NCBI GenBank assembly: GCA_001563335.1 | Contig: LRSL01000109.1 | Location: 1 to 64,000 of the forward strand | Source: Candidatus Thorarchaeota archaeon SMTZ1-45 | GTDB lineage: Archaea > Asgardarchaeota > Thorarchaeia > Thorarchaeales > Thorarchaeaceae | Length of the DNA: 64,000 nucleotides | Direction of reading: 5' to 3' | Shown here: in pieces, positions 6,181-53,587 of the stretch | Position numbering within the stretch: the stretch's first letter is position 1 | How the letters are laid out: every line of letters starts with the position of its first letter | Made by a program: the position numbers and the translations under genes | Notes under the pieces: generated by a model | Seen by the model: only the letters and a program-made list of their open reading frames with translations | The model's database searches: none | What the model was told of the DNA's origin: nothing

Positions 6181-7291
6181 ATTCCAGGATCTCCTTAATC
6201 ATCTTGTAAGATGACCGGGTCTTCTCAAGATCAAACATACCCGTAGCGTTCCAGAGAATGACATGTGCGAGCCCTTGTTTCACATAGTCTTCAAGTATTC
6301 CAATGAGGGTTTCTTTATCGCCAGTCATATAGAACTCCTGTAAAACTTCTAGCGGCACCTTTTCGATCGCATCTAATGTGGTCTTTCGATCATATCGCAT
6401 CGGAATGTAGTTGGTGAGTCCATGAAAATCATCACCAAAAGGATGTGAATATCCCAAACGTGTCCAGTTACTTGCTGAATGCATTAGAGCAAATGCTCTG
6501 GCAAGAGGGGTTTTCATCAGCCTCTCACATTCCGCGGGATCATCATCAATAATGCACCACTTCCAAAAGGCGGCTGTGAAAGGTCCGGTGCGATCTAATT
6601 TCTTTCTGTGATCCTGAATGATTTTTAGACCCTCCCCGTATTGCTTTGGTTTTGCGGTATGTGGAACCCATCCATCTCCATATTCAGCTGCGAGTTTGAG
6701 CATCTTGGGGCCCACGGCTGCAATCCAGATTGGCGGTGGCTTTCCATCCACGGCAGGCCTCAGAGACATGACTGCGTCCTTGAGTTTCCAATAGCGGCCA
6801 TCATAGCTAAATGGTTCATGCGTATTCCAAACCATTTTGATAATCTCAAGAGCCTCACGAAGTTTTCCTACCTGGCCAGAGTAGTTCAACCCATATGGTT
6901 CGATATTCTCAAGCTCTCCAGCTCCAATGCCAAGTACTGTTCTTCCTCTACTGATATGATCCAGTGTGAGAAAGGTTTGAGCAATAAGGATTGGATGTCG
7001 TCTGATTGGTTCAGTAACTGAAGAAATCAGTTGTACATTCTCAGTAACCGACGCGCAGGCACTCATGATGCTAGATAACTCGTAGTATGTGTGAGGCGAA
7101 TGTTGGAAAACAGCTAAGGGTGTAATGTCAGGAGTCCAGATGCTTTCAGGAATAAATCCAGCAAAATGGTCTGGAAAAGCCATACTATCGTAGCCTAAGG
7201 AGTCAATAGTTTTTGCATTCTTCATCGCATTGTCCCAGGGTGGAAGAAAGGGGCCAGGAGCTCCAATCTTCAAATCATGTATGTCAGCCAT
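6167..7291 (-). CDS. LLM-class flavin/F420-dependent oxidoreductase
   Basis: FPDHF, TLDHISRGRTVLGIGAG, PPIWIAA.GPKML and GDGW motifs. Confidence 0.9.
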   Translation of the reverse strand: MADIHDLKIGAPGPFLPPWDNAMKNAKTIDSLGYDSMAFPDHFAGFIPESIWTPDITPLAVFQHSPHTYYELSSIMSACASVTENVQLISSVTEPIRRHPILIAQTFLTLDHISRGRTVLGIGAGELENIEPYGLNYSGQVGKLREALEIIKMVWNTHEPFSYDGRYWKLKDAVMSLRPAVDGKPPPIWIAAVGPKMLKLAAEYGDGWVPHTAKPKQYGEGLKIIQDHRKKLDRTGPFTAAFWKWCIIDDDPAECERLMKTPLARAFALMHSASNWTRLGYSHPFGDDFHGLTNYIPMRYDRKTTLDAIEKVPLEVLQEFYMTGDKETLIGILEDYVKQGLAHVILWNATGMFDLEKTRSSYKMIKEILEYVKG

Positions 7292-40186: not shown

Positions 40187-41461
40187 GTGGAAACAATGAA
40201 ACCAGACCTTCTCCTTACAAATATTGGACAGGTTGCTACACTAGCAGGACACAGTGACTCTCCAAAGACTGGAGTACAGATGAATGAGCTATCTATAATT
40301 GAGAACGGCGCTATAGCAATCAGAGATGGTAAAATCATCGCTGTTGGACCTACAAAAGAAGTTCTTTCACAATTGACTGAAGAGCCAAAACTTCCCGCAA
40401 TTGAATTCCCCGGAATGCTTGCTACACCAGGTTTCATAGATAGTCATACTCACCTTATTTTCGGAGGATCAAGAGAGCACGATTTTGCTATGAAACTTGC
40501 AGGGAAGTCGTATCTTGAGATCCTTGAAGCTGGTGGTGGGATTCTGAATACTCTTCGATCTACGAGAGCGGCAAGCCAAAGCGAGTTGGTTAGGAACTCA
40601 TTCTCTTATGCCGAGAGTATGTTGAGTATGGGATGTACTACAATTGAAGCAAAGAGTGGATACGGGCTTGATACAGAGAATGAGCTTAAGATGCTTAGAG
40701 CTGCGGAGAGTTTAAGGAAAAAGCTACCAATCAATCTAGTTTCAACCTTTATTGGAGCACATGCTGTTCCTCCGGAATATGAGGAGAGGACCGAAGAATA
40801 TGTGGACCTTGTCGTTGATGAAATGATTCCAGCTGTAGCTGAAAACAAGCTGGCAGAGTTTTGCGACGTTTTCTGTGAAGAAGGTGTTTTTGACATTGAC
40901 CAATCAAGGAGGATTCTTCTTGCGGCAAAAGGTAAGGGGATGAAGCTCAAAATTCATGCTGATGAAATCGTACAGCTCGGTGGAGCGTTTCTAGCTGCTG
41001 AAGTTGGAGCAGTCTCAGCAGACCACTTATTGATGGCATCGGATGATGGTCTTGAGGCGATGCTTAGAGCAGGTACAATTGCGACCCTCTTGCCTGCAAC
41101 AGCATTCAGCCTTGATACGAGTTATGCAGATGCGCGCAAGATGATAGAGATGGGATTACCTGTATCTCTTGCGACTGACTTTAATCCAAATTGCGCAAAT
41201 GAGTCTCTGTTCTTCACCATCGCGTTGTCGTGCTACAAGATGAAGATGACGCCCAGAGAGGCGCTCTCCGCAGTCACCATCAATGCGGCCCATGCCCTAG
41301 ACATAGGAGCAACCCACGGGAGCATTGAGGTGGGAAAAGCAGCTGATATCCTCGTACTTGACTGTCCCAATCCAGAGTACCTAACTTGGAGGTTCGGTGT
41401 CAATTTGGTTCACACTGTCATCTCAGATGGACAAGTAATTCATACAAAGCTGGGACCCTAG
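40187..41461 (+). CDS. hutI: Imidazolonepropionase
   Basis: PGFIDSHTHL, GGGIL, EAKSGYGL, DVFCE, HADE, SADHL and ATDFNP. Confidence 0.95.
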   Translation: METMKPDLLLTNIGQVATLAGHSDSPKTGVQMNELSIIENGAIAIRDGKIIAVGPTKEVLSQLTEEPKLPAIEFPGMLATPGFIDSHTHLIFGGSREHDFAMKLAGKSYLEILEAGGGILNTLRSTRAASQSELVRNSFSYAESMLSMGCTTIEAKSGYGLDTENELKMLRAAESLRKKLPINLVSTFIGAHAVPPEYEERTEEYVDLVVDEMIPAVAENKLAEFCDVFCEEGVFDIDQSRRILLAAKGKGMKLKIHADEIVQLGGAFLAAEVGAVSADHLLMASDDGLEAMLRAGTIATLLPATAFSLDTSYADARKMIEMGLPVSLATDFNPNCANESLFFTIALSCYKMKMTPREALSAVTINAAHALDIGATHGSIEVGKAADILVLDCPNPEYLTWRFGVNLVHTVISDGQVIHTKLGP

Positions 41462-43002
41462 CTCTCATAGAGAGGACCTGTGACTGACTCAACCGAAGCT
41501 ATAATATCACCAGACTTCATGAGTTCACGGATTTTCTTTATGTCTGGAGAAAGTGGTCGATCATTCTCCAGTTTGGAAACCCCGCTTCTTATGGTCTTGT
41601 GAGCCTCCTGCAGGGGATCTGACGGTTTCAGGGGAGCAAGATAATCAATGCCTTGAGCAGCACACATGTACTCAATCGCAACAACATTTTGTGAGTTCTC
41701 AAGAATATTTGCCGCCTTTCGTGCAGCTATTGTGCCCATACTAACATGATCTTCTTGGTCTGCACTTGTAGGAATTGAGTCGACACTCGCTGGATGCGCT
41801 AACACTTTATTCTCTGAAACGAGCCCTGCGGCAGTATACTGTGCAATCATCATCCCTGACTCAAGTCCCCCCTCAGTTGTTAGAAATGCTGGTAATTCGC
41901 TCAAATTTGGATTGACCAATCGATTGATTCGTCTCTCAGAGATATTTGCAATCTCAGATAATGCAATTCCAAGAAAATCCATTGCGAGCGCAACAGGTTG
42001 TCCGTGGAAATTACCTCCAGATATCACAATTCCGTCATCACCAAAAACCAGTGGATTATCAGTAGCGGAGTTGATTTCTGTTTCGAGAACACTATAGACA
42101 TATCGGATTGTATCCAATGATGCTCCCAATACCTGAGGAATACATCTTAGTGAGTAGGCATCTTGTACTTTCCCACAGTCAGCATGAGACTGGTTGATTT
42201 CACTATCTAGCAGGATCTTTCTTTGAGCTGAAGCTACATCTATTTGTCCTTCATGCGGGCGAAGAGAGTGAATCCTTTCGTCTGATGCCATCCTTGTTCC
42301 ACGTAATGCTTCAAGACTCATTGAGGAAGCAATGGTTGTATCGTAGATTAATCGAAGTGCATCATAGACTGTGATAACACCAACTGCAGTCATTGGTTGA
42401 GTTCCATTGATCAATGCGACTCCCTCCTTAGCTTGTAGCACAATTGGTTTGATTCCAGCCTTACGTAAGGCTTCTCCACCACTAACTAATTTGTCCGATT
42501 TGAAAGCTTCACCCTCACCAATGAGAACCAACGCTATATGAGCTAGAGGAGCCAAATCGCCACTAGATCCTACTGATCCCTGCTGTGGAACAACAGGAAG
42601 TACATCCTTGTTCAACATCTCAATCAGGGTTTCAATGACTTCTAGACGAACTCCAGAGTAGCCTTTCGCAAGTGCATTGACTCTGAGTAACATCATTCCC
42701 CGTACAATTTCTTTTGAGAATGGAGGACCCACTCCTGCACTATGGCTACGGATTAAGTTAACCTGAAGACGAGCTAAATCATCCTTGTTAATGGATACAT
42801 CTGCGAGATCTCCAAAACCAGTGTTTACTCCATATACAACAGCTCCCTCTTTGATTGCTTTTTCCACAACATCTCGACTACTTCTAATTCGCGGGATTGT
42901 TGATTCATGTAGGATTACTGGCTCTTTGTGCCGTGCCACTTGTACGACATCTTCTATAGTGAGACTCTCACCATCAACCATCACAGGCATTGTGTCCACC
43001 AA
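41458..43002 (-). CDS. hutH: Histidine ammonia-lyase
   Basis: VYGVNTGFG, GSSGDLAPL (MIO site), QDAYSLRC, GGNFHG and QEDHVSMG. Confidence 0.95.
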   Translation of the reverse strand: MVDTMPVMVDGESLTIEDVVQVARHKEPVILHESTIPRIRSSRDVVEKAIKEGAVVYGVNTGFGDLADVSINKDDLARLQVNLIRSHSAGVGPPFSKEIVRGMMLLRVNALAKGYSGVRLEVIETLIEMLNKDVLPVVPQQGSVGSSGDLAPLAHIALVLIGEGEAFKSDKLVSGGEALRKAGIKPIVLQAKEGVALINGTQPMTAVGVITVYDALRLIYDTTIASSMSLEALRGTRMASDERIHSLRPHEGQIDVASAQRKILLDSEINQSHADCGKVQDAYSLRCIPQVLGASLDTIRYVYSVLETEINSATDNPLVFGDDGIVISGGNFHGQPVALAMDFLGIALSEIANISERRINRLVNPNLSELPAFLTTEGGLESGMMIAQYTAAGLVSENKVLAHPASVDSIPTSADQEDHVSMGTIAARKAANILENSQNVVAIEYMCAAQGIDYLAPLKPSDPLQEAHKTIRSGVSKLENDRPLSPDIKKIRELMKSGDIIASVESVTGPLYES

Positions 43003-43103
43003 AGCCTTGGAAACACAGCAACAAGTGTGAACTAGTTACTGTCTGATGAGGTTCGTAGAAGCTCTCTTTAGTAGTTATCGTTAAATTTGAAAAATCCAAA
43101 AAG

Positions 43104-45153
43104 TCATGTCTCACCAAGAGTTTTTTGGACTAACTCTTCTATCAGCCCCTCCTTTGGAATAAATGGAAGAGAAATATGACCTTTGTTTCCTAATCTCTTA
43201 TTCCATTCAATCGTTGTTTCAATAGCATGATTATTTCTTGCCCAAGCACGACGTGCAACACCACCCATTACATCCCAATCGAGAGCTAAACGAATAATAG
43301 TATCAACACGTTCAGTGCCATCTAGAACCAGACCAAATCCACTATTGATTGCTTTTCCAGTACCCACACCACCACCGTTTGACAAAACACAGAGTGTCAT
43401 TCCACGAGCTACATTACCAGCCCAACATTGGTGCGCCATGTCACTCATAACATTGCTACCATCACGAATGTTTGCTGTTTCTCTGAATGGCGAGTCTGTC
43501 CCACCAGTATCATGGTGGTCACGTCCCAACATGATAGGGCCAACCCTTTTTTCACGAACCATCTTGTTGAAAGCTAGAGCAATGTCAACTCGACCAAGAG
43601 CATCTGCATACAAAATTCGTGCTTGAGATCCAACGACAAGTGCATTCTTCTCAGCATCTCGAATCCAAATGTAATTATCTCGGTCTTGCCCACGACGCTC
43701 AGGACTGATGCGTGACATTGCCATCTTGTCTGTTGCTGCAAGGTCTTCATGGCTTCCGCTTAGACAGACCCATCGGAACGGACCATAACCATAGTCAAAG
43801 CAGATTGGTCCCATGATGTCTTCAACATATGAAGGGAAGATGAAACCATCTGACTCGTTTTCACCATTCTTTGCAATTCTCCTGACACCAGCATCAAAAA
43901 CAGCCTTCATGAAGCTGTTACCATAGTCCCAGAAGTGGGACCCCCGTTTTGTCATAATCTCAATAAGTTCAAACTGTTTGCGGAGGGATTTGTCAACCAT
44001 CTCGTTGAACTTTTTTCGGTCTGACCGGAGGAGCTCACGTCCCTCTTCAAAGGTAACTCCCTGAGGTGTATATCCACCACCATATACGTCATGACATGAG
44101 GTCTGATCTGATGCAAGCTCAATCTTAATGTCATTTTGAACAACATAGTCCCAAAGATCAACAACATTCCCATAGTAACCTATTGAAACAGATTTACCAT
44201 TGGAACGATGATCTTCAACCCAATGGAAAATCTCATCAAGATTCGAAGAGTATCTGCTTAGCCAACCTTGTTCACTACGTGTTTCAATACGGCTTTTATC
44301 AACCTCAGCAATAATTCCAATTCCACCAGCAATCTCGATTGCCTTAGCCTGAGCGCCACTCATTCCGCCAAGTCCTGATGTCAAGAAGACTTTCCCACTT
44401 AGGTCACCATCATCAGGGATTCCTAGGTATAATCGTCCAGCATTCAAGAGTGTGATGTAGGTCCCATGGACAATCCCTTGAGGTCCTATATACATCCAAC
44501 CACCAGCTGTCATCTGACCATAGTTTGCAACACCCATGGCTGCAGCTTGATGAAATCCATCAAGCGTGTCAAACATTCCTACCATGAGACCATTGGTAGT
44601 GATTGCTCGAGGCGCATTCTTGTGGGAAGGGAACAGACCAATAGGATGTCCTGAATTGACGACAAGTGTTTGCTCATCTGTCATTACTTCAAGATACTTC
44701 TTGATTAATTGATACTGCATCCAGTTCTGGCACACCTGACCACTCTCTCCGGTAAGTTTAGGAAATCTAACAATTTACTCCGTAAGTGACCAGTTCATAT
44801 GGATACAAGGCTACATCAAAGTCCAGATTGTTGTCAATCATCAATTGTATTGCTCTTGCTTCAAGAATACCTTTGTACTCAGTGATTGGCTTGGCTTTTA
44901 TCTCACCAGGGGGTCTGTATCTGTATCCATAAATTCTTCCTCTGGATAACAGCTCAGCCAAAAATTCTGGAGCTAGGTGATTGTGCAGTTCTGAGGGCAC
45001 ATATCGAAGAGCGTTTTTGATTGAAATGATTGTGTCATGTTTATTGAGGTTATATCCTCTATCTGGAGCTCGTCTAATTCTAGGATCAAAAACTGGTTCT
45101 GGAGGAAGCTCTCCAGACAGTTTAATATGCATTGCTTTTGAAGGATCAGTCAT
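43104..45153 (-). CDS. hutU: Urocanate hydratase, long type, interrupted; exons 45153-44778 and 44746-43104 join to 672 aa
   Basis: The 128-aa ORF ends LYPYELVTYG and the next frame resumes ESGQVCQNWMQY; YGQMTAGGWMYIGPQGIVHGT, SGLGGMSGAQ, DQTSCH and GRDHHD motifs are intact. Confidence 0.9.
44747..44777 (-). other. 31-nt insert in hutU, candidate BHB-type intron
   Basis: TAAATTGTTAGATTTCCTAAACTTACCGGAG; removal restores TAC GGA GAG AGT; the flanking exons pair over 10 bp (three G-U pairs). Confidence 0.6.
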
Positions 45154-45214
45154 ACAATAACCACATCCTATTAAGTTTCAATAACATCAGGTTAGTCACG
45201 TCTTATACAGGTTT

Positions 45215-48200
45215 TCATGAATTTGTTTTGTATTTCCTTGCAATCCTACCAATTGTCGCAATACTCCTTGAGATTTTGTGTTCTCTCCAGAGTTGTAGAC
45301 TAATTTCCCCGTATGTCAATCCTTTCTGTCTAAGCCTCGATATTTCTGAGATTTCAAAGGAGGTTACTCGTTTCCTCTTTGGTCTTGCGTCAATCATTTC
45401 ACATAGTTCAGATAGATTTTCAAGACGACTAGTAGCATTCTTGAAAAGAGGAAGATTATGTAAATTGCGAATAGATGCATGATGTACTATTTCAATCCCT
45501 TTTTTCTGTAACAGTGATTCGATATTGAAAGATTCCAGGATTTTTTTGATATGCCGCTTATTAGCTAAAGATCCAATTCCAACACGTTGACTAATTAATG
45601 AAGCATAACCATCACCATCTGCTATCCCTTGAAGAAATGGAATCTGAAAGTCCTGGGGGATTCTATGAATCCAATCAGCTTTTAGAGTGCTGTAGGTTTT
45701 TTTATCATTCGGACCTAGATTGAATATCACCTCTCTCATCCAAACAAAAAAAGGGCTGTCAATGCAAAGTTCACAAATTGAATCAAGTTCTCTTTCCAAA
45801 TACGAAATTCTTGAAGGACTCAGCATTGAGAATGAATTAGAAACATCTTCAAGGATTTTTTTCGACCATTCATATTTCTGACTGAGTAAAATCCTTAATG
45901 AATAAGAAGTCTTACTTGTAGGTTGGATGTACCCATCAGCAAGAATCATACCAAGAATATACATGAATTCTTGAAAAGGTAGTTTCAATTGCTTACAAAC
46001 TTCCAGTATTGATGAAAAATCAATATTCTTGATTGGAACTTCGATATAATCATAGTATACATTTTCTTCTACACGCAGTGGTAGCCATTTCCAGCCATTG
46101 CGAGGAGGATTTGTTGGAATCTCCTTAAGTATCTGCAAACCTCGGGGTAGGATTCCTTTAGTCCACGATAATATGGCGGTTTCGTGGACTTCAAGTAAAC
46201 TTGCTATGATATTTAATGGGTATCCTGTTTCAAACAAGTCTAAGAATCTGAAGTAGGCTTTTGTGTACTTGGTCATATCCTCAATGTTTTTCCATTGGTT
46301 CAGATATGGTTCAATATAGAGGTTCCTTCTTAAAGTGGAGAGATGATCAAATGAGTTTGCAAACAAAGAAGTTCTAAGCTTGTTTGCCTTGATTTTGTTT
46401 TTGATTGCTTGTTCAATATAGACTAGCAGTTGAGGTCTATTTGCTTCAAGTGTCCATCGCCTTGCCTTGGTTGGAGCTATTCCGATTCTGTCAGAGATTG
46501 TTAGAAGTTCGCTGTTCCTGATATTTTGTCTGCCCTTGAAATTTTCTTTCAATGTGAAGTATAGAATAGCATCAGATTTAAGCGACTTAAAATTGCTCAA
46601 AGTTGTTAAACCTGGATACTCTTTGAGCTTGACATTCAGTTGCTGCTGTGATATGACTCCGATATTTTCTAGAGATTCATAGAGTCTTATCGGTGAATGT
46701 TCTGTCTGGATTTTACTCCTTATTGAGTGAGGATTGACAACAATTCGAATGGGCCAAGGAGTAACACCGTCAATAATAGCTTTTGTTCTAGTAGAGCCTA
46801 ATTTCAACTTGCGATCGACATCACATTGTAACATCCCCTTTTCTAATAACTCTAGTATCTGATAGTATAATTCTAGATGTTTCCATTGTTTATCAGCTGT
46901 TGGCCAAGAATCGATTGACTCATCCATTTCTAAGTCTACTAGTTTTTGTTTGATAGTATCAGCATCTTGGAATTTGCCAAGCCGCTTGCGTATGGATTTC
47001 ACTCGAATTTGATTTTGGAGAACATTATTAATCATTCTAAATATAGTAGGATGAGAGTGTAGTTTTTGTGGATTCGATTTCTTAAAATATTTCTTAGCTT
47101 GAGTCATCCATTTAGTATAGGATTTATTCTCTTTTAGTCCTGGAAATTTCTGCTCAACAATTACTTCAAGTTTCCTCAAAGAATCAATTTGTTCATCCCC
47201 GATTTTGGGATAGTTACATGTTTGTACGGGTCCACCTTGAGAGTCAACGAGTTTACGCTTGGACTTCGTTTTTTTGGATTTAGCGTTCAATCTCTCCATG
47301 AGAAACCTTTCAAAAGAACGGCGTATGGATTCACCTACAACCTTTGTCCACTCTCGTTCCACCTCGAGTGCCCACAGTTCTCTAACAAGCTTTGGTGCTG
47401 GACCTTTCTTCATCCCCCTCACAAAAGAACGGGCATCCTTCAGTTTCTGCTTGTAGTCAGAGCTGAGCTTGACAGAGGGATGACGTGCAATGAGTTCCTC
47501 TAGGTCCTCCTCTGATTTTAATCTTGACCTGATAATCTCCTTGAGACGCTCACGCTCCTCCTCTGAGAGTTCACTGAAGAGCTCACGGAATCTTCTCCGG
47601 ATATCCTCCTCTTCAGAGGTCTCCTCATCCTCCCCAAAGAATGACCGGGGCTTGAGGGTCCTGTCGACCACACGTTCTCCTGTCAGAGCCTCAACAATGA
47701 CTCTCTCCTCAGACTCAGATTCCGACTCCTCAAGGCGTTCCACTAACTCTTCTACTCGACTGATGAACTCCTCTGGAATGTCGTCATCAAGTTCACTCTC
47801 AAAGGCCTCTTGTTCGTGAGAGGACTCTTCCTGTTCAATGAATTCAGAGAGCTCAAGCTCAGACATATCAGAATCAATCTCAGGTTCAATGACCTCGTTC
47901 GAGTCTTCAGAGGACTTCTCCACCTCTTGGGCGGCTTTAGCTCCAAGGTCCACGTCGAATTCTTCAACAGAGTCTACATCATCCTCAATTCTGGATTCCT
48001 TGGTGTCTTCATGCCTGAGTTCAGACTGGTCATCATGCTGAGGTTCTATCTTGGAGGACTCAGGCTCAGGTAACTCTGGAGTTTCGTTAGACTCGATTTG
48101 CTGGACTCCTTGGTTCTCTATCTCTTCTACCGGGTTAGAGGACGAGGTTTCCCCGTGCTCGATCTCTGGTGCTTCCTGTCTTGAGATCTTGTTCCTGAAG

Positions 48201-48811
48201 CCATCATCAAGTGATTCCACCTCATCATCAGCTGGCTCATGAGTTTCTGTGTTTTCAAGTTCTTCTTTCTCACACTCAACCTCGGACTGTGTTTCCCCCT
48301 CAGACTCGCTCCTAGTTTCCATTGCATAGACCATTCCAGTGCCTACATCCTCGTAAGACTCACTGGCTTCTGTTGCCTCCGAGGTTACTCCGTCATCACT
48401 TCCTTCTTCCACTTCACTGTCCTTTCTCGAAACCCCCTCCAGCTGATGGCTCAAATCATTGACATATTCGTCATGGAGTTCATCTCGTACTTCGTCAAGG
48501 TCATTCTCCAGATCATCCTCGAAGGACTCCTTAGCCTCCATATCTTTCTCCCGTTGAAGGTCATCGAATTCCTTCGCAGCTACCTCAGCAAGGTCTTCTA
48601 TCTCCTTGATCTTCGATCTGAGCTCATCAAACTCCTTAGCAGCCTCATTGGCTATCCACTCAATCTCCTCCTGACGATCAAAGTCCTCCGCTTCCTCCGT
48701 TGCATCCTTCTCTACCTCATCATGAACCTCTCTACTCTCTGGTTCGTCGGGAGTTTCCTCGCACTCTATCTCTGAATACCAGTCTGCACCGTCTGTTCGT
48801 TCATGCGGCAA
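45215..48811 (-). CDS. Large protein: acidic low-complexity N-terminus, helical/HTH repeats, double LAGLIDADG domain, C-terminal HTH
   Basis: YILGMILADG and FLQGIADGDG motifs; LRQKGLTYGEIS HTH; E/D/S-rich first ~450 aa. Start probably TTG 48811. Confidence 0.8.
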   Translation of the reverse strand: MPHERTDGADWYSEIECEETPDEPESREVHDEVEKDATEEAEDFDRQEEIEWIANEAAKEFDELRSKIKEIEDLAEVAAKEFDDLQREKDMEAKESFEDDLENDLDEVRDELHDEYVNDLSHQLEGVSRKDSEVEEGSDDGVTSEATEASESYEDVGTGMVYAMETRSESEGETQSEVECEKEELENTETHEPADDEVESLDDGFRNKISRQEAPEIEHGETSSSNPVEEIENQGVQQIESNETPELPEPESSKIEPQHDDQSELRHEDTKESRIEDDVDSVEEFDVDLGAKAAQEVEKSSEDSNEVIEPEIDSDMSELELSEFIEQEESSHEQEAFESELDDDIPEEFISRVEELVERLEESESESEERVIVEALTGERVVDRTLKPRSFFGEDEETSEEEDIRRRFRELFSELSEEERERLKEIIRSRLKSEEDLEELIARHPSVKLSSDYKQKLKDARSFVRGMKKGPAPKLVRELWALEVEREWTKVVGESIRRSFERFLMERLNAKSKKTKSKRKLVDSQGGPVQTCNYPKIGDEQIDSLRKLEVIVEQKFPGLKENKSYTKWMTQAKKYFKKSNPQKLHSHPTIFRMINNVLQNQIRVKSIRKRLGKFQDADTIKQKLVDLEMDESIDSWPTADKQWKHLELYYQILELLEKGMLQCDVDRKLKLGSTRTKAIIDGVTPWPIRIVVNPHSIRSKIQTEHSPIRLYESLENIGVISQQQLNVKLKEYPGLTTLSNFKSLKSDAILYFTLKENFKGRQNIRNSELLTISDRIGIAPTKARRWTLEANRPQLLVYIEQAIKNKIKANKLRTSLFANSFDHLSTLRRNLYIEPYLNQWKNIEDMTKYTKAYFRFLDLFETGYPLNIIASLLEVHETAILSWTKGILPRGLQILKEIPTNPPRNGWKWLPLRVEENVYYDYIEVPIKNIDFSSILEVCKQLKLPFQEFMYILGMILADGYIQPTSKTSYSLRILLSQKYEWSKKILEDVSNSFSMLSPSRISYLERELDSICELCIDSPFFVWMREVIFNLGPNDKKTYSTLKADWIHRIPQDFQIPFLQGIADGDGYASLISQRVGIGSLANKRHIKKILESFNIESLLQKKGIEIVHHASIRNLHNLPLFKNATSRLENLSELCEMIDARPKRKRVTSFEISEISRLRQKGLTYGEISLQLWREHKISRSIATIGRIARKYKTNS

Positions 48812-51800
48812 CTTCAGACCCCGAGTTGTTGATTTCCGATTGGACCATATCATGCACAGCGGCCCAAAGTGCATCATTGACTGGAGAGTCCAGAGTTGCC
48901 CTTGCCTCATTCAGTAACAAAATCACTACTTCGGTGATGTCGAAACCATCTCCAGCAATCATTCTGGAGAATGTCGTCAATAGAAGTACGAGTGGCTCAT
49001 AGTTGCCATCCGCAGCCATCTGAGCTAGTGGTTGGTATCTGCTGACAAACTGGTTAGTACACACAATGGATCTCACCTTCTCTTCGAGCTCTCCATCAGG
49101 CTCTACTCCATGATTGTCTGATTGATCTGTACTCTGTAGCTTCTTAATCTCGTCAAGTGCCATTCTCACCGCGGACATCACATCAGATGCTGTTACCTTA
49201 GCATCATGCTTGAATGAGCTGACCCTCCACTCAAGTTCCGAATTGAGCCGTGAGTGATAACGCTCAAGATGGTTGCTTGGCAATTCGCTGAGTGACAGGA
49301 GCAGTTTCAACTCCTCCACTATTTTTCCAAGAAATGACGGATTGAACTCTTTCATCTTTGAGATACACCAGATCAGATGATGAGCATCGAATGATACATG
49401 TGTATCATCTGGTCCTGCGAGCCTCGCAATATTACGAGTGATTAGAGCCCCAAGCCTTGATTTTTTGGTTTCAATGAGAGTCTTCAAGACCTTCTTGAAG
49501 AATGCACTATCCAACATTGTATAGAGTCTGAGTGCTCTAGGAATGTCTATCTTAATGGTTGCTAACCTAAGAGATAGTTCTCCTGATTTCAATGATTTAA
49601 GAGCGTGTGCAGACTTGGTCTGAAAATGAGGGTTCTGTGTGAAGAAAGGGCTCATGTGCTGAATAATCTCCTCATCAGTCACTGGTTTCCCAAGAGCAAG
49701 TTCTGGATGCAACACTACAATGTCATTGACCCGCACCCGCACTGGTCTGCTGATACTGGCAGTTCGAATCACAGCCTCACCGACTGGTAAGGATCCCATC
49801 ATCCGAATCTGGTCCTCGGTACAGTTCATCTGATCGCCGATGAGTTTTCGATCTGATCCCGTACCTCTACCGTGCATGATTATGTTCAGGGCTATTGTGT
49901 ATGCACTGCTTGTGAGTTCTGAGAACCCCGGTGCGATTAGAGTGAAGCCCACTCCTGCACTCCTCGACTCTTTCATAGTGGTGGTGATTGTTTCCACAGC
50001 TGCCTGTTTTGCACCATGCTCCTCATCCACCTTGACCCCAGTTTCAACTTTGAGAATCCTGTGAGACTCCTCAATGACCACGTTATACTTCAGCCCTTTC
50101 TTGTACACCTTCTCAGTCTTCTTCTTTGCCTCAAAGTAGCGAGCCACTCTGGATACGAACCAGAAGACAAAGAACGACTGCTCATCCTTGGATAGTGCAT
50201 ATAGTAGTATAAGACTAGGTTTCTTAGTCAGTTCTTTCATGGTGATACCAGAGGTCGTTCCAAAGACACTGTTGAGTGCACTACTACATAACTTGTTGAA
50301 CCTGATATAGAGTGCTCCCCACACATCCTCGTTTCCTCGTGTACTGTACTGGACCTCCTCCTTGATGAGCGGCAAGGTTTCAAGAAAGTCTGAGAGAACA
50401 ATAGCCAACCCAGGAGTGTTGGTTTCGCGGTCCCAGCCCAATCTCTCGAAGGTCAGTTCGATGACCAGCTCCATATACTCCTTGATGATTCCATGCGCAG
50501 GCATCGCAGCAATGATGATAGCCTTCATGTCATTGATAACTGAGTTGACATGCATGCCCTCACAAAACTCACTGAGAGAGAACCTTACAGGAGTGACAGT
50601 TTCATCACCTGGGGTGAGGACAAGAATGTCCTTCACCTTCCGGAGAAACCGAAGATGGTCCTCATTCTTTGAGAGTAACAGCTTGGTGAAGTTGATCCCC
50701 AGCCGATATAATTCTAGGGTGATGTTCGACTCAGTCACAGTTTTTCCGTTCCCAATGTCGCCGCCAATCACGCTGTGTGATGTCAGATCATTGGTTGGAA
50801 TCACGAAATCATCAGCGGGAGTTCCTGAGTCATCCAAGACCTTCCCAAGTCGGATACCATTAGTCTTGTTTCGTTCCTTCTGATCGCCCCTTCGGGTTGT
50901 GGGATTTGTACGAAATGAAGCATGGTCTGCAACTGAGATACCGAGATCGTTTCGTGCTAAGGAGAAGTAGACACTTGCCTCCTCAAGTGACAGAAGCGTT
51001 GTCCTACCAACTATCTCACCCTCAATCAGTCTGTTGGCTTCTTGAGGACTCTTCTGGGTTTCAATAGAGAGATGGTTCTGGGGATCAGCTGGGATGAGAG
51101 TGCCCCTTAATACTCCCGCTAGCTTCCTTGAGTATTTCTCAGCAATCGCTGCGTCTCGGTCCCAGCAGGTCGCGGAAACCTCAACCTCACACAGATGACT
51201 GTTGCTCAGTCTATCAATCTGTATCTGTAGAGACTCAGCCTTTTTGACAGCCTCCATGTCTGTCCTTGTCTTGGACTCCTGAACCTCACCAGAAAGCAGT
51301 ATTGACCTTGGCTTCGATATGGTCAGCTGTGCCCGTTCACTCTCAGTCTTGTACTGTTTCCCCAGTGACTGGACTGCCCGATTACTAGAGCGTTTTGGAA
51401 TGGCCCAGAACTGCACAATTCCGTTCTGTAGGCCAAGAAGAACCTCCATCATGACAGTGATTGCATCAATCCTCTGTCGTGGGTCGTCCACTGTAAGTGG
51501 TTCACCCAAGAGATATGTCGTCACAGACGTAGCAAATGGACTAATAGTTGGTGCATAAAACCTCGCGTGTACCTTTCGTTTGAAGCCCGAGAGGTTTCCT
51601 TTTACAGTGTCAGCGAGTGTTTCGAGACTCTCCGACAGTTCAGCATCTTTCCTTGCCCAGGTCAGATACAACACACGCATCTTGTTCCTCACACGTTCGT
51701 ACCGGAGCCCCACTGGAAAGTTAGATAGGACCATGACGCGTAGGATGTTGAAGAGAGGTTGATACTTGGACTGATCGGGGTCCTTGTTCAGCAGATGTTC

Positions 51801-52289
51801 TTCTGGGAACTCAGTCAGTTCGACAGCCCCAACCAGACAATCCTTTTTGATCACTCTCTGAGAGATTGCGATTCCAACACTTTGGGGAATGCTTGGGCTT
51901 TCTGGAGGTGATGATGGCACCCTTTGACCATACCACAGCAAGAGTAATGCGGTCACAATTCCAGCAATCATTATGGTTTCAAAGGGGTAGAGGAGTGCGA
52001 TCTGGATGAGAAGCAGGACTCCTCCGACAATGATCGCACCAATTGTGATGACGAATCCACTCAGCCAGAGAATAATTTTGTACTTTGATATCTGTGAAAA
52101 TGCAAGTGTACAAGATCCCAGAAAAAAAATGACACCTGAGAGGAGAAAAGCTTGGAGTTTTAGTTGGGCAGGTCCAAAGGGTACTATCGTTAATAACCAA
52201 AGGCTGATGTATGATGGCAGGAGAGTTGCCATTAAGACTAAACAGAGCTTTGTGATGACTGATCCAGCCCCAGACTTCTCTTCTGACAT
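48801..52289 (-). CDS. Membrane-anchored HerA/VirB4/TraD-like P-loop ATPase
   Basis: About four N-terminal TM helices, HSVIGGDIGNGKT (Walker A), VVIEESHR (Walker B), ESRSAG and LPVGEA; GGAGG RBS. Confidence 0.85.
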   Translation of the reverse strand: MSEEKSGAGSVITKLCLVLMATLLPSYISLWLLTIVPFGPAQLKLQAFLLSGVIFFLGSCTLAFSQISKYKIILWLSGFVITIGAIIVGGVLLLIQIALLYPFETIMIAGIVTALLLLWYGQRVPSSPPESPSIPQSVGIAISQRVIKKDCLVGAVELTEFPEEHLLNKDPDQSKYQPLFNILRVMVLSNFPVGLRYERVRNKMRVLYLTWARKDAELSESLETLADTVKGNLSGFKRKVHARFYAPTISPFATSVTTYLLGEPLTVDDPRQRIDAITVMMEVLLGLQNGIVQFWAIPKRSSNRAVQSLGKQYKTESERAQLTISKPRSILLSGEVQESKTRTDMEAVKKAESLQIQIDRLSNSHLCEVEVSATCWDRDAAIAEKYSRKLAGVLRGTLIPADPQNHLSIETQKSPQEANRLIEGEIVGRTTLLSLEEASVYFSLARNDLGISVADHASFRTNPTTRRGDQKERNKTNGIRLGKVLDDSGTPADDFVIPTNDLTSHSVIGGDIGNGKTVTESNITLELYRLGINFTKLLLSKNEDHLRFLRKVKDILVLTPGDETVTPVRFSLSEFCEGMHVNSVINDMKAIIIAAMPAHGIIKEYMELVIELTFERLGWDRETNTPGLAIVLSDFLETLPLIKEEVQYSTRGNEDVWGALYIRFNKLCSSALNSVFGTTSGITMKELTKKPSLILLYALSKDEQSFFVFWFVSRVARYFEAKKKTEKVYKKGLKYNVVIEESHRILKVETGVKVDEEHGAKQAAVETITTTMKESRSAGVGFTLIAPGFSELTSSAYTIALNIIMHGRGTGSDRKLIGDQMNCTEDQIRMMGSLPVGEAVIRTASISRPVRVRVNDIVVLHPELALGKPVTDEEIIQHMSPFFTQNPHFQTKSAHALKSLKSGELSLRLATIKIDIPRALRLYTMLDSAFFKKVLKTLIETKKSRLGALITRNIARLAGPDDTHVSFDAHHLIWCISKMKEFNPSFLGKIVEELKLLLSLSELPSNHLERYHSRLNSELEWRVSSFKHDAKVTASDVMSAVRMALDEIKKLQSTDQSDNHGVEPDGELEEKVRSIVCTNQFVSRYQPLAQMAADGNYEPLVLLLTTFSRMIAGDGFDITEVVILLLNEARATLDSPVNDALWAAVHDMVQSEINNSGSEVAA

Positions 52290-52714
52290 GAATGACCTCC
52301 AACCTAGTTACTTGTACTCGTTTATCATCTCATATTTAGAAGATAGAAGACATTTCAGCGTTCGGTGGAATATAATTAAGGAATTATAGGGAAGAATTGC
52401 TGCTCTATGTGTTTTAGAATCATCCCGATTGCTAAATTTCGATTATGGGGTTTTATTTTATAAGAAAAAGGCTTATTCCGTGTATTTGATATATGCCAAG
52501 GTCCAAAAGTGCATATTAAAGGTCGGTTTTTCACAGTTTTTCATGTGGTTCGAGCATCTGTCATAAAAAAGGGTGAGTGAGAGAGCTAGATTGATTAGGT
52601 TTCATGCAGGTGAGTTCCTAGTTGAGGCATACCAGATGGTAGGAATACATGAAACAGGTGACGAACTCCTAGAGATCTTACAGAAGAATGGGCATCATAA
52701 GACAAAGAAACTTG

Positions 52715-52846
52715 TTAAGGAACTTCAGTGGGGGTTAGATCGTATCCCCTGTTGGGTGCTCGTCTATACTGTATATCAAAAGCTGGATCAGGAGGCAACT
52801 CAGAAGAAAGTTTGATTGTCATTGCCTTGCTAATATCGAAACTCAT
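52715..52846 (-). pseudogene. Truncated second copy of the hutU 5' end (43 codons)
   Basis: DISKAMTIKLSSELPPDPAFDIQYRRAPNRGYDL vs DPSKAMHIKLSGELPPEPVFDPRIRRAPDRGYNL (24/34 identical by eye). Confidence 0.85.
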
Positions 52847-52923
52847 GGAAACACATCCATTGGTTGTATTTTCTATGAGTACTCCCTTCATAAAAGACTC
52901 GCTAGACAAAATGCTGAGGAGTA

Positions 52924-53301
52924 TTATGAGGGAGGTATGAGCACTTTGAATAAGCTATCTTGGGGTAAATCATCAATATCTAGAGAAGCAGTCCACAGAC
53001 CATCTTGTGACATGACTCCTATTGTTAATCCTTCATCATCAAGTCGAAGCAGATACTCAAGATGTTTGATGAGATTATTAATGGATTGTTTAACGTCTTT
53101 TCGAGTGTTAGGACATGGTTGCCTCGGAAGAGACACCTCAACTTCAATTCTCCAATTTTCTGAGGTTTCAGCATCACGAACAGTGAGAATTCGAACCCAA
53201 TCACTCTGATATAGCACTAATGCGGACTCTTCATTCTCGCTCAAAGACAGCTTGTTCAATGCAAGCATACACTTTGATTTCAACTCAGAATAAGTCAGCA
53301 A
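52924..53301 (-). CDS. Hypothetical protein
   Basis: Start probably TTG 53301 after GGAGTGA; follows the HTH gene. Confidence 0.6.
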   Translation of the reverse strand: MLTYSELKSKCMLALNKLSLSENEESALVLYQSDWVRILTVRDAETSENWRIEVEVSLPRQPCPNTRKDVKQSINNLIKHLEYLLRLDDEGLTIGVMSQDGLWTASLDIDDLPQDSLFKVLIPPS

Positions 53302-53326
53302 TAGATAATCACTCCAAGTAAGGATT

Positions 53327-53587
53327 CTACCTAACAATCGAGCCATATTTGGCAAAGATTGCCCTTGCCTTTTCTTGGTTGACAACATAGAGTGTACTCC
53401 GCATGTCACCAAGATTGGGAATTTTTTCACAAAGGTCTGAACCAACCAAGCGGTCTAACGCAAAAGTTACTGTACGAAGTGGAACATTTGCTTCCTTGCT
53501 AATTACTCTTGGAGGTAGAGGACCTCTGGTTGTTAAATGCTGTAGAACACGAAGTGCACTTTTTGGTAATCTTATCAAGTGTCGCAA
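53327..53587 (-). CDS. Small wHTH (MarR-like) regulator
   Basis: LPKSAL...GPL...RTVTFAL..L...PNLGDMR..LY. Confidence 0.8.
   Translation of the reverse strand: MRHLIRLPKSALRVLQHLTTRGPLPPRVISKEANVPLRTVTFALDRLVGSDLCEKIPNLGDMRSTLYVVNQEKARAIFAKYGSIVR

Follow-up and report, generated by a model that had tools for sequence, protein, structure and literature searches.

We report that hutU, the urocanase gene in the histidine-utilisation cluster of Candidatus Thorarchaeota archaeon SMTZ1-45, is split by a 31-nucleotide (nt) insert downstream of a free-standing LAGLIDADG gene, and that the comparative evidence points to co-inheritance of the two. The window, the whole stretch of DNA analysed, comprises 64,000 nt (positions 1 to 64,000 of contig LRSL01000109.1); its genome is called G000 below, and all window features are on the minus strand unless stated. 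The LAGLIDADG gene (presumed to encode a homing endonuclease and hereafter the nuclease gene), a foreign and re-coded first exon of hutU (exon 1') and the insert, a predicted intron of the bulge-helix-bulge (BHB) type, would together make up a homing-type selfish unit in which the intron spares the carrier from cleavage and hutU is spliced. From the comparisons described here we put the probability of this reading at about 0.7.

The hutU gene of G000 falls into two reading frames. Piece 1 (44767-45153, 128 amino acids (aa)) matches positions 1-43 of the Pfam profile Urocanase_N, and piece 2 (43104-44735, 543 aa) matches positions 48-127 of that profile followed by Urocanase and Urocanase_C. 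Alignment with 17 congeneric hutU genes, from which the motif search dropped L011 and L013, located a single exact insertion of 31 nt within ELVTYG|ESGQVCQNW that is carried by none of the 17. The insert is flanked by ACTTACGGAG and ACTTACCGGAG, and its boundary can be set at 44747-44777 or 44752-44782 because a 5-nt CGGAG repeat permits sliding. With the former setting, exon 1' (codons 1-125 and part of the next) occupies 44778-45153 and exon 2 occupies 43104-44746. Contigs of three public runs, X1 and X2, which may represent the source sample, and X3, from another study, cross the insert without differences, which rules out an assembly slip. No insert-free variant with the same flanks was present in the contigs from four DNA runs, contigs being apt to lose rare variants; other, intron-less relatives are the apparent source of a joint from 44742 to 44816 and of a loose end at 44735 in X4. 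The insert in a conserved hutU motif reported by an earlier, sequence-only reading of this DNA is thus real, and two further features of that reading were borne out. The nuclease gene (45215-48910, 1231 aa as the longest open reading frame (ORF)) is separated by 61 nt from the hutU ATG (45153), where about 60 base pairs (bp) had been given, and it overlaps the gene of a membrane-anchored P-loop ATPase of VirB4/HerA type (48801-52289, 1162 aa) by 110 nt. A stored 1198-aa version of the LAGLIDADG protein starts ~99 nt later, which reduces the calculated overlap to ~11 nt.

Explicit BHB geometry was tested because minimum free energy (MFE) folding disfavours bulged BHB shapes. The motif spans 44738-44791 in G000. 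Its outer helix pairs 44784-44791 with 44738-44745, the bulges are AGT (44777-44779) and AGA (44746-44748), the central helix pairs ACGG (44780-44783) with CCGG (44749-44752) through 3 bp and an A.G mismatch, and the inner hairpin covers 44753-44776. Orthologues of the nuclease gene are found directly upstream of hutU in two further genomes, G075 and G101, and on the metagenome contig L073, and each of these hutU genes is split at the same codon (site A) by 32 nt. The intron sequence is identical in G101 and L073; those of G000 and G075 differ from it and from each other. All carriers share one architecture, with an outer helix of GGUCACUU and its exon-2 partner, two 3-nt bulges and an inner hairpin that has a 5-nt loop. 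The inner helix comprises 10 bp in G075 and G101 and is weak in G000, where five of ten aligned columns pair and about seven A-U-rich pairs can be read by eye in a shifted register. The central helix repeats the 3 bp and A.G mismatch in G075 and has two of four bp in G101 and L073, and the motif is therefore of the relaxed kind. Three nt, the inner hairpin and four nt add up to 31, 32 and 32 nt, the very lengths that have to be removed to recover the frame and YGESGQ. Genome-wide, the relaxed motif has a rate of 5e-4 per position, so that 0.0045 would be expected in the nine possible registers, the criterion being post hoc. Pairing was seen in 85.5% of cells of the site-A alignment vs 28-45% when the partners were slid.

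These comparisons indicate that the insert is a BHB intron rather than a scar, and its splicing is predicted. The proposal of the sequence-only reading that it is an ORF-less intron therefore gained support from the fold and from the same-site inserts of G075, G101 and L073; the tRNA-splicing (BHB) type, a native exon-1 remnant and a second intron site had not been seen in that reading. The genome of G000 encodes two EndA paralogues (PF01974), at C29:33521-33775 and C69:146793-147053. Two EndA paralogues are counted in 44 of 60 Asgard genomes in the available text of a preprint (bioRxiv preprint 10.64898/2026.10.13.758758), and the accessible part of another report assigns to Asgard archaea an (alpha-beta)2 EndA with an L1 loop, of the broad-specificity type (PMC5829648). 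Other identities of the insert were considered and rejected: a group I or group II intron, on its length of 31 nt and on the absence of any Rfam match in 43000-53500 at E ≤ 1, and a mobile mini-element, no other copy being present in its own genome, in 27 congeners (≤3 mismatches) or in metagenome contigs. A scan of all of G000 for BHB geometry combined with ORF fusion passed 5825 of 1,248,695 candidates, adjacent genes being easily fused, and no conclusion was drawn from it.

Exon 1 and exon 2 of the site-A genes differ in descent. Against its relative G010, the G000 protein is 90% identical over residues 134-678 and 68% identical over residues 3-134. In comparison with the nearest relative, the nucleotide identities of the two exons (exon 1, then exon 2) are 64% and 82% for G000-G010, 69% and 90% for G075-G086, 67% and 93% for G101-G097, and 66% and 93% for L073-G096; between the carriers G101 and L073 they are 97% and 91%. 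In close pairs, third-position mismatches reach the last bases of exon 1 and cease no more than ~10 nt into exon 2. Where its three closest relatives agree, G000 matches them at 68% of sites before ~44880 and at 93.5% after; on its own, G000 confines the switch to a stretch of ~130 nt containing the insert. In the exon-2 tree, grouping is by genus (G000+G010 with support 100/98, G075+G086 100/100, G101+G097 96/89, L073+G096 100/100). The exon-1 tree unites G101 and L073 (100/98) apart from G097+G096 (100/99) and joins G000 with G075 (91/81). Left out of the trees were L125, whose exon 1 is too short, and L008, L011, L012, L013 and L015. Approximately unbiased (AU) tests rejected the placement of exon 1 of G101 or L073 with the exon-2 sisters (p 2e-83 and 6e-72), as well as exon-2 unions of carriers (p 1e-5 for G101+L073, 1e-41); the tested carrier groups were named after the trees had been seen. 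By these identities, exon 1 is foreign in all four site-A genes, with the switch at the intron, and exon 2 of G000 is native. A break at the intron site predicts a switch from foreign to native sequence there, in independent genomes and at two sites; random crossover does not. The earlier suggestion that intron and nuclease gene are inherited together by co-conversion agrees with this foreign exon lying between them.

A native copy of the hutU start is retained at the far side of the insertion. Identified by tblastn and leader alignment at 52724-52900, it consists of the 5' leader, the start codon and ~45-47 codons. The tblastn match (52858-52724) is 71% identical to residues 5-49 of G010; the remnant shares 85% aa identity with G022 over 47 aa and 73-76% nt identity with L004 and L005, and its leader is nearly identical to those of congeners. 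The region between remnant and ATPase start (52290-52723), a non-coding leader of the inserted unit, has no homology to hutU or to the intergenic DNA of relatives. In G101 a remnant of codons 1-95, 88-92% identical in nt to G097, lies upstream of the nuclease gene, and remnants were found in two of the four site-A units. The G101 remnant is itself split at ~codon 29 by a ~273-nt insertion (L075, G101:C104, 6898-7172). Because a homologue of the window gene at 52924-53445 directly precedes hutU in all seven congeners fetched, the ATPase and nuclease genes constitute an insertion of ~7.6 kb. A different insert, 4.5 kb long, occupies the equivalent spot upstream of hutU in G022 (L041, G022:C8, 725-5259) and encodes two membrane proteins of 620-660 aa and a 154-aa helix-turn-helix (HTH) protein. 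The rest of the histidine-utilisation cluster is intact around the split gene, with hutH at 41458-43002 and hutI on the plus strand at 40187-41461.

A co-occurrence survey of the kind suggested in the sequence-only reading was run on 87 Thorarchaeia genomes, 77 of which contain hutU. The nuclease family adjoins hutU only in G000, G075 and G101, all with the site-A intron, and in G093, which has an intron at a second site (site B, below); beside an intron-less hutU it was found in none of the 77. Including L073, nuclease gene and intron occur together at 4/4 site-A loci, spread over three genera, and at one of eight site-B loci. The unit is present in one and absent from the other of the sister species G101/G097, L073/G096, G075/G086 and G000/G010. 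The linkage expected in the earlier reading therefore held for the nuclease gene, the intron and, with remnants in half of the units, the 5' duplicate; it did not hold for the ATPase gene, the other member of the proposed pair, which accompanies two of the four units.

The second BHB mini-intron site lies in hutU at NYGQ|MTAGG and was found in 8 of the 87 genomes, from five genera (L077-L083 and L134, in G050, G071, G062, G090, G063, G091, G093 and G070). Seven of these genes carry a 30-nt in-frame intron with one in-frame stop, and G070 carries a 29-nt frameshifting version. Sites A and B are both preceded by the exon words TTACGGA. In an alignment of seven site-B sequences, pairing was observed in 96.4% of cells vs 33-45% with slid partners, compensatory changes affect 7 of 16 pairs, and none of 500 shuffles attained as high a covariation score. 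In the central helix, all four pairs of which form in six of the seven genomes, an intron G/A changes together with the C/T at the third position of the Tyr codon. Identity upstream and downstream of the intron (74% and 96%, 73% and 90%, 77% and 93% in nt) follows the pattern of site A. A joint alignment of both sites could not hold one structure and was not used. The site-B covariance model R1 recovered only its eight training sequences from the 87 genomes, other hits having E 0.05-0.5, and found no match in G000, being blind to site A.

Selection on the interrupted genes is consistent with a maintained function. Between G090 and G091, each with a stop inside its intron, the ratio of nonsynonymous to synonymous divergence (dN/dS) of hutU is 0.039 at dS 0.93; such strong selection would be difficult to account for if the insert were not removed. 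Between G101 and L073, dN/dS is 0.07 in exon 1 and 0.11 in exon 2. Excision of 31, 32, 30 or 29 nt restores the hutU frame and the invariant motifs, and all spliced reading frames are open. Gene callers would call the site-B genes broken. Four assemblies break contigs at hutU residue ~204-208, that is at site B (G014:C34 end and C117 end; G016:C79 start; G074:C357 end; G087:C276 start), which suggests mixtures of strains with and without the intron. Separately, the hutU of G066 (L136, G066:C15, ~6189-6205) has a single-base frameshift near residue 161-166, not of intron size, that is probably an error or a true pseudogene.

The LAGLIDADG protein consists of an acidic low-complexity N-terminal half with conserved segments at residues ~60-210 and ~440-560, HTH repeats, a two-motif LAGLIDADG core (residues ~965-1152, window 45455-46018) and a C-terminal HTH. 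It matches Pfam LAGLIDADG_3 at E 3e-6. A structure model of its C-terminal 480 aa, with a predicted local distance difference test score (pLDDT) of 94.5, shows the two-fold repeated alpha-beta-beta-alpha-beta-beta-alpha fold, the core corresponding to model residues 217-404. Foldseek matched the model to I-SceI (2.4e-5), I-WcaI, I-DmoI and PI-type inteins, and also to WhiA and the bI3 maturase. The two motifs read ILGMILADGY and FLQGIADGDGY; D244, G347, D350, G351, D352 and G353, which include the acidic residues ending both motifs, are invariant in 42 family members. The ratio of nonsynonymous to synonymous differences (pN/pS) between the G101 and L073 nuclease genes is 0.31. With its invariant Asp, its I-SceI/I-DmoI-like fold and this ratio, the protein looks nuclease-competent.

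A search of 1.84 billion representatives at E ≤ 1e-3 gathered 240 clusters of the family, and profile hits occur in 37 of the 87 Thorarchaeia genomes. The closest homologues of the window protein, at 43-47% identity, are those of G075 (L074, in a Thorarchaeota metagenome-assembled genome (MAG)), G101 (L075) and L073. Querying with the single protein returned no related metagenome loci; a three-sequence alignment as query recovered L073 and L074. Outside the site-A clade, the G093 nuclease stands closest to it, at 33-35% identity. The G000 gene itself is a chimera. Its GC content falls from 0.47-0.49 to 0.36-0.38 at ~47000, and tblastx against G014:C67 gave high-scoring segment pairs of 47-73% identity in the N-terminal half and 19-41% in the C-terminal half; such a shift of composition and similarity at ~47000-47500 suggests module shuffling. 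The G000 ATPase is 73% identical to the copy on G014:C67.

Other clades of the family adjoin other genes. One lies beside the aIF2-alpha gene in three genomes (G000:C24:371-2119, L030 (G014:C8) and L031 (G001:C3)), with 68% identity between G000 and G014, and a further clade (52% identity) lies upstream of an acyl-CoA carboxyltransferase (CT) gene (G014:C67, G001:C4). The CT locus contains serial partial 3' copies of the carboxyltransferase gene (L029+L034 at G014:C67 10895-12155, L069 at G015:C209, L070 at G001:C10), and the cargo between the copies includes AbiE-like and Fic/Doc-like pairs, MNT/HEPN-like ones recognised by eye from motifs at the ORF starts, and large surface proteins of the beta-helix type; the locus looks like an insertion hot spot that replaces gene ends. 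A family of ~150-aa HTH proteins, with seven G000 copies (C24:5-229, C57, C69, two on C89, C109:103424-103882 and C114), often adjoins variable cassettes such as the short-form nuclease gene on C24 and the ATPase gene on G014:C67.

The ATPase has no Pfam match and matches HerA weakly (PDB HerA 4d2i at E 1e-3; PADLOC HerA at 7e-6). Walker A residues G510, G513, G515 and K516 and Walker B residues E740 and E741 are invariant across 30 sequences. Structure prediction, as the earlier reading had suggested, gave an AlphaFold model with pLDDT 81.7 and four long N-terminal helices, which Foldseek matched to TrwK/VirB4 (1.7e-14) and HerA (1.4e-12) as well as SIR2-HerA and DUF4297-HerA. By motif conservation and modelled fold it is an additional-strand catalytic-glutamate (ASCE) ATPase of the VirB4/HerA type. 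Homologues bearing organism names are all from Thorarchaeota, and its score against the NCBIfam model CedD is 30 bits, the cut-off being 600. Among 41 related genomes, an ATPase gene stands beside the long-form nuclease (ORF of at least 1000 aa) at seven of eight places and beside the short form (<800 aa) at none of eight. At site A it accompanies the units of G000 and G075, is missing from that of G101, and in L073 the contig starts 297 nt upstream of the nuclease gene; the G000 and G075 copies are 27% identical. The ATPase is thus an exchangeable accessory module and not an integral part of the unit. Type IV secretion, Ced or conjugation genes beside it were found neither in the window nor at ten other copies examined. 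The suggestion of the sequence-only reading that the ATPase belongs to the system did not stand, as it occurs in two of four units in diverged copies, and nothing in the comparisons shows the cell-to-cell transfer that it was thought it may promote. In its boldest form, a membrane translocase tethered through the acidic extension of the nuclease would move DNA or the nuclease between cells, making a self-spreading three-part element; we hold such infectious homing to be doubtful. If it were true, homing would have been made infectious in a cellular archaeon, among the closest prokaryotic relatives of eukaryotes.

The mechanism we propose is as follows. A homing unit at 44747-52900 would have entered the 5' part of hutU; its core would be the free-standing two-motif LAGLIDADG gene, its own diverged hutU exon 1 and the 31-nt intron in the YG|ESGQ codons. 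The host's two-subunit tRNA-splicing endonuclease would excise the intron and an RNA ligase rejoin the exons, so that hutU would stay functional. Alleles of hutU without the intron would be cut by the nuclease at the intron site or close to it, and the carrier would be protected by the intron splitting that site. Repair of a cut allele from the carrier would copy intron, exon 1' and nuclease gene together. The upstream native exon-1 remnant may serve as the left homology arm, and the strong re-coding of exon 1' would hinder recombination between the two exon-1 copies. In G000 and G075 the nuclease, with its long acidic N-terminal extension, would be co-transcribed in an operon with the ATPase.

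A different account would need no cutting of hutU at all. The nuclease-like gene, exon 1' and an independent BHB intron may have been passively co-transferred by homology-facilitated illegitimate recombination anchored in hutU, which we judge unlikely but worth weighing. Partial gene-end duplicates flank unrelated toxin-antitoxin and surface-protein cargo at the CT locus of congeners (G001, G014, G015) and so are not specific to the nuclease, and the unrelated G022 cargo occupies the same spot upstream of hutU. Passive transfer would also accommodate the seven of eight site-B loci at which a nuclease gene was not found near hutU and the family clades with no adjacent intron. Against it stand the restriction of the family beside hutU to intron-bearing genes (4/4 such genomes among the 87, in three or four genera) and the coincidence of the foreign/native switch with the intron, seen at two sites and in independent genomes. 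In this account the LAGLIDADG protein would be a WhiA-like DNA-binding regulator or, together with the HerA-type ATPase, defence or other cargo. WhiA is among its fold matches, some defence systems consist of HerA and a nuclease, and the ATPase has fold matches to SIR2-HerA and DUF4297-HerA. WhiA, however, has lost the LAGLIDADG catalytic Asp residues, whereas the catalytic Asp is invariant in this family, and PADLOC gave no match for the LAGLIDADG protein.

A recently dead hutU, in which slippage or repair left the insert as a scar made of filler and a 10-nt duplication of the flank, is very unlikely. Such a scar would fit the repeated flanks, the ordinary folding energy, and the singleton status of the insert, which has one hit in its own genome, 0/27 congeners and no metagenome contig. 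It would leave unexplained why two other genera have 32-nt inserts at that codon, with intact exons and a shared BHB architecture, why both exon 1' and exon 2 are under strong purifying selection in genes with the intron, why hutH and hutI are intact and why the analogous site B shows covariation. Least probable to us are programmed ribosomal bypassing from GGA to GGA as in T4 gene 60, and a role of the LAGLIDADG protein as a splicing maturase. Matching GGA codons do flank the G000 insert, but the 3' end reads GGC AAG in L073 and G101, so that matched take-off and landing codons are not conserved; site-B introns have no GGA pair, and their covariation fits BHB helices, not a bypass signal. As for a maturase, bI3 is among the fold matches, but BHB splicing proceeds without one.

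Several observations weigh against the homing reading itself. Within the site-A introns, the inner helix of G000 is weak, its central helix holds an A.G mismatch and that of G101 forms two of four pairs; compensatory change is limited to two pairs, and the covariation score was reached by 23 of 500 shuffles with three independent intron sequences. The MFE fold of the 121 nt around the insert is ordinary (z = 0.99). In G000 the change-point at ~44880 lies ~100 nt before the intron, the five informative sites between 44884 and the insert split 3:2, and AU tests on exon 1 of G000 and G075 did not reject native placement (p = 0.27, 0.13, 0.32). The gene-end duplicates at the CT locus and the unit of G101, which lacks an ATPase, count on the same side, as does the 27% identity of the G000 and G075 ATPases. 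At the seven other site-B loci fetched, a nuclease gene was not found within ~5 kb upstream of hutU; for six of these seven, genome-wide family hits are on other contigs or absent. The G093 copy is frameshifted and has no C-terminal HTH. The CT and aIF2-alpha genes adjoining other family clades contain no intron. Comparison of 35 further family loci with G000 orthologues revealed no split downstream gene, many of these loci ending at contig ends, and the screen re-detected only its two included site-B controls, L077 and L083. By its covariance model the site-B intron type seems confined to hutU, and this, like the intron-free neighbours of other clades and the gene-end duplicates, speaks against a general rule.

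The hutU unit shares features with several known systems. Among them are archaeal rRNA BHB introns that encode LAGLIDADG homing endonucleases (I-DmoI, I-PorI) and are spliced by the host EndA. They resemble the present case in pairing a BHB intron with a LAGLIDADG nuclease, but their ORF lies inside a long intron, whereas the hutU intron is ~30 nt long, ORF-less and located in a protein-coding gene, with the nuclease gene outside and upstream. Intron-less homing by a free-standing endonuclease is exemplified by T4 SegF. The available part of one account places phage nuclease genes at boundaries of genetic exchange (PMC10055350). Shared with such systems are a nuclease gene beside its target gene and a tract of co-conversion that stops close to the cut; the hutU site differs in being marked by an intron and in lying on an archaeal chromosome. 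In phage collaborative, or trans, homing, the free-standing F-CphI is associated with an ORF-less psbA group I intron in cyanophage S-PM2, and mobE with the I-TevIII intron in T4 (PMC6083498, PMC2790892, in the text available of each). There too a free-standing nuclease gene adjoins a gene with an ORF-less intron at the presumed target, and the intervening DNA is co-inherited. Unlike these self-splicing group I introns, the hutU intron is of BHB type, 31-32 nt long and predicted to be removed by the host; its nuclease is a LAGLIDADG protein, its host is a cellular Asgard archaeon, and the unit includes a re-coded exon 1, a native remnant and an optional VirB4/HerA ATPase. The cbf5 pre-mRNA of Crenarchaeota is likewise an archaeal protein-coding mRNA interrupted by a BHB intron, cut by the tRNA splicing endonuclease and gained or lost among relatives (PMC2738675); gene, phylum and size differ, and the accessible text of that paper does not describe a linked homing endonuclease or exon replacement. 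The ATPase resembles VirB4/TrwK, HerA and the HerA-nuclease pairs (HerA-NurA, SIR2-HerA, DUF4297-HerA) in its fold, its Walker motifs and the pairing of ATPase and nuclease genes. It differs from them in the four membrane helices at its N-terminus, in a helical C-terminal domain of 300 aa at residues ~860-1162, in its partner, a LAGLIDADG protein with an acidic extension, and in being seen only in Thorarchaeota.

In the literature searched, supplements, which may list mRNA introns, being excluded, we found nothing on hutU introns or Asgard mRNA introns, nor any link between a BHB intron and a free-standing LAGLIDADG gene; among archaeal protein-coding genes, a BHB intron was on record there for cbf5 alone. 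The hutU unit would thus appear to be collaborative homing with unusual parts, of a kind undescribed for archaeal protein-coding genes in that literature.

Introns in archaeal protein-coding genes appear rare, and their origin and spread matter above all in the Asgard archaea, which are sister to eukaryotes. The locus gives a testable mechanism, whereby a conserved gene would be invaded by a very small intron, spliced by the host, and by a re-coded exon, both driven by a free-standing nuclease, and hutU provides two independent intron sites together with natural pairs of carrier and non-carrier sister species. It also offers a new LAGLIDADG scaffold with HTH-repeat arrays and pairs the nuclease with a VirB4/HerA-type membrane ATPase. 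For annotation, it means that a supposed "pseudogene" of an Asgard MAG, with a frameshift or a stop, can be a functional gene with an intron.

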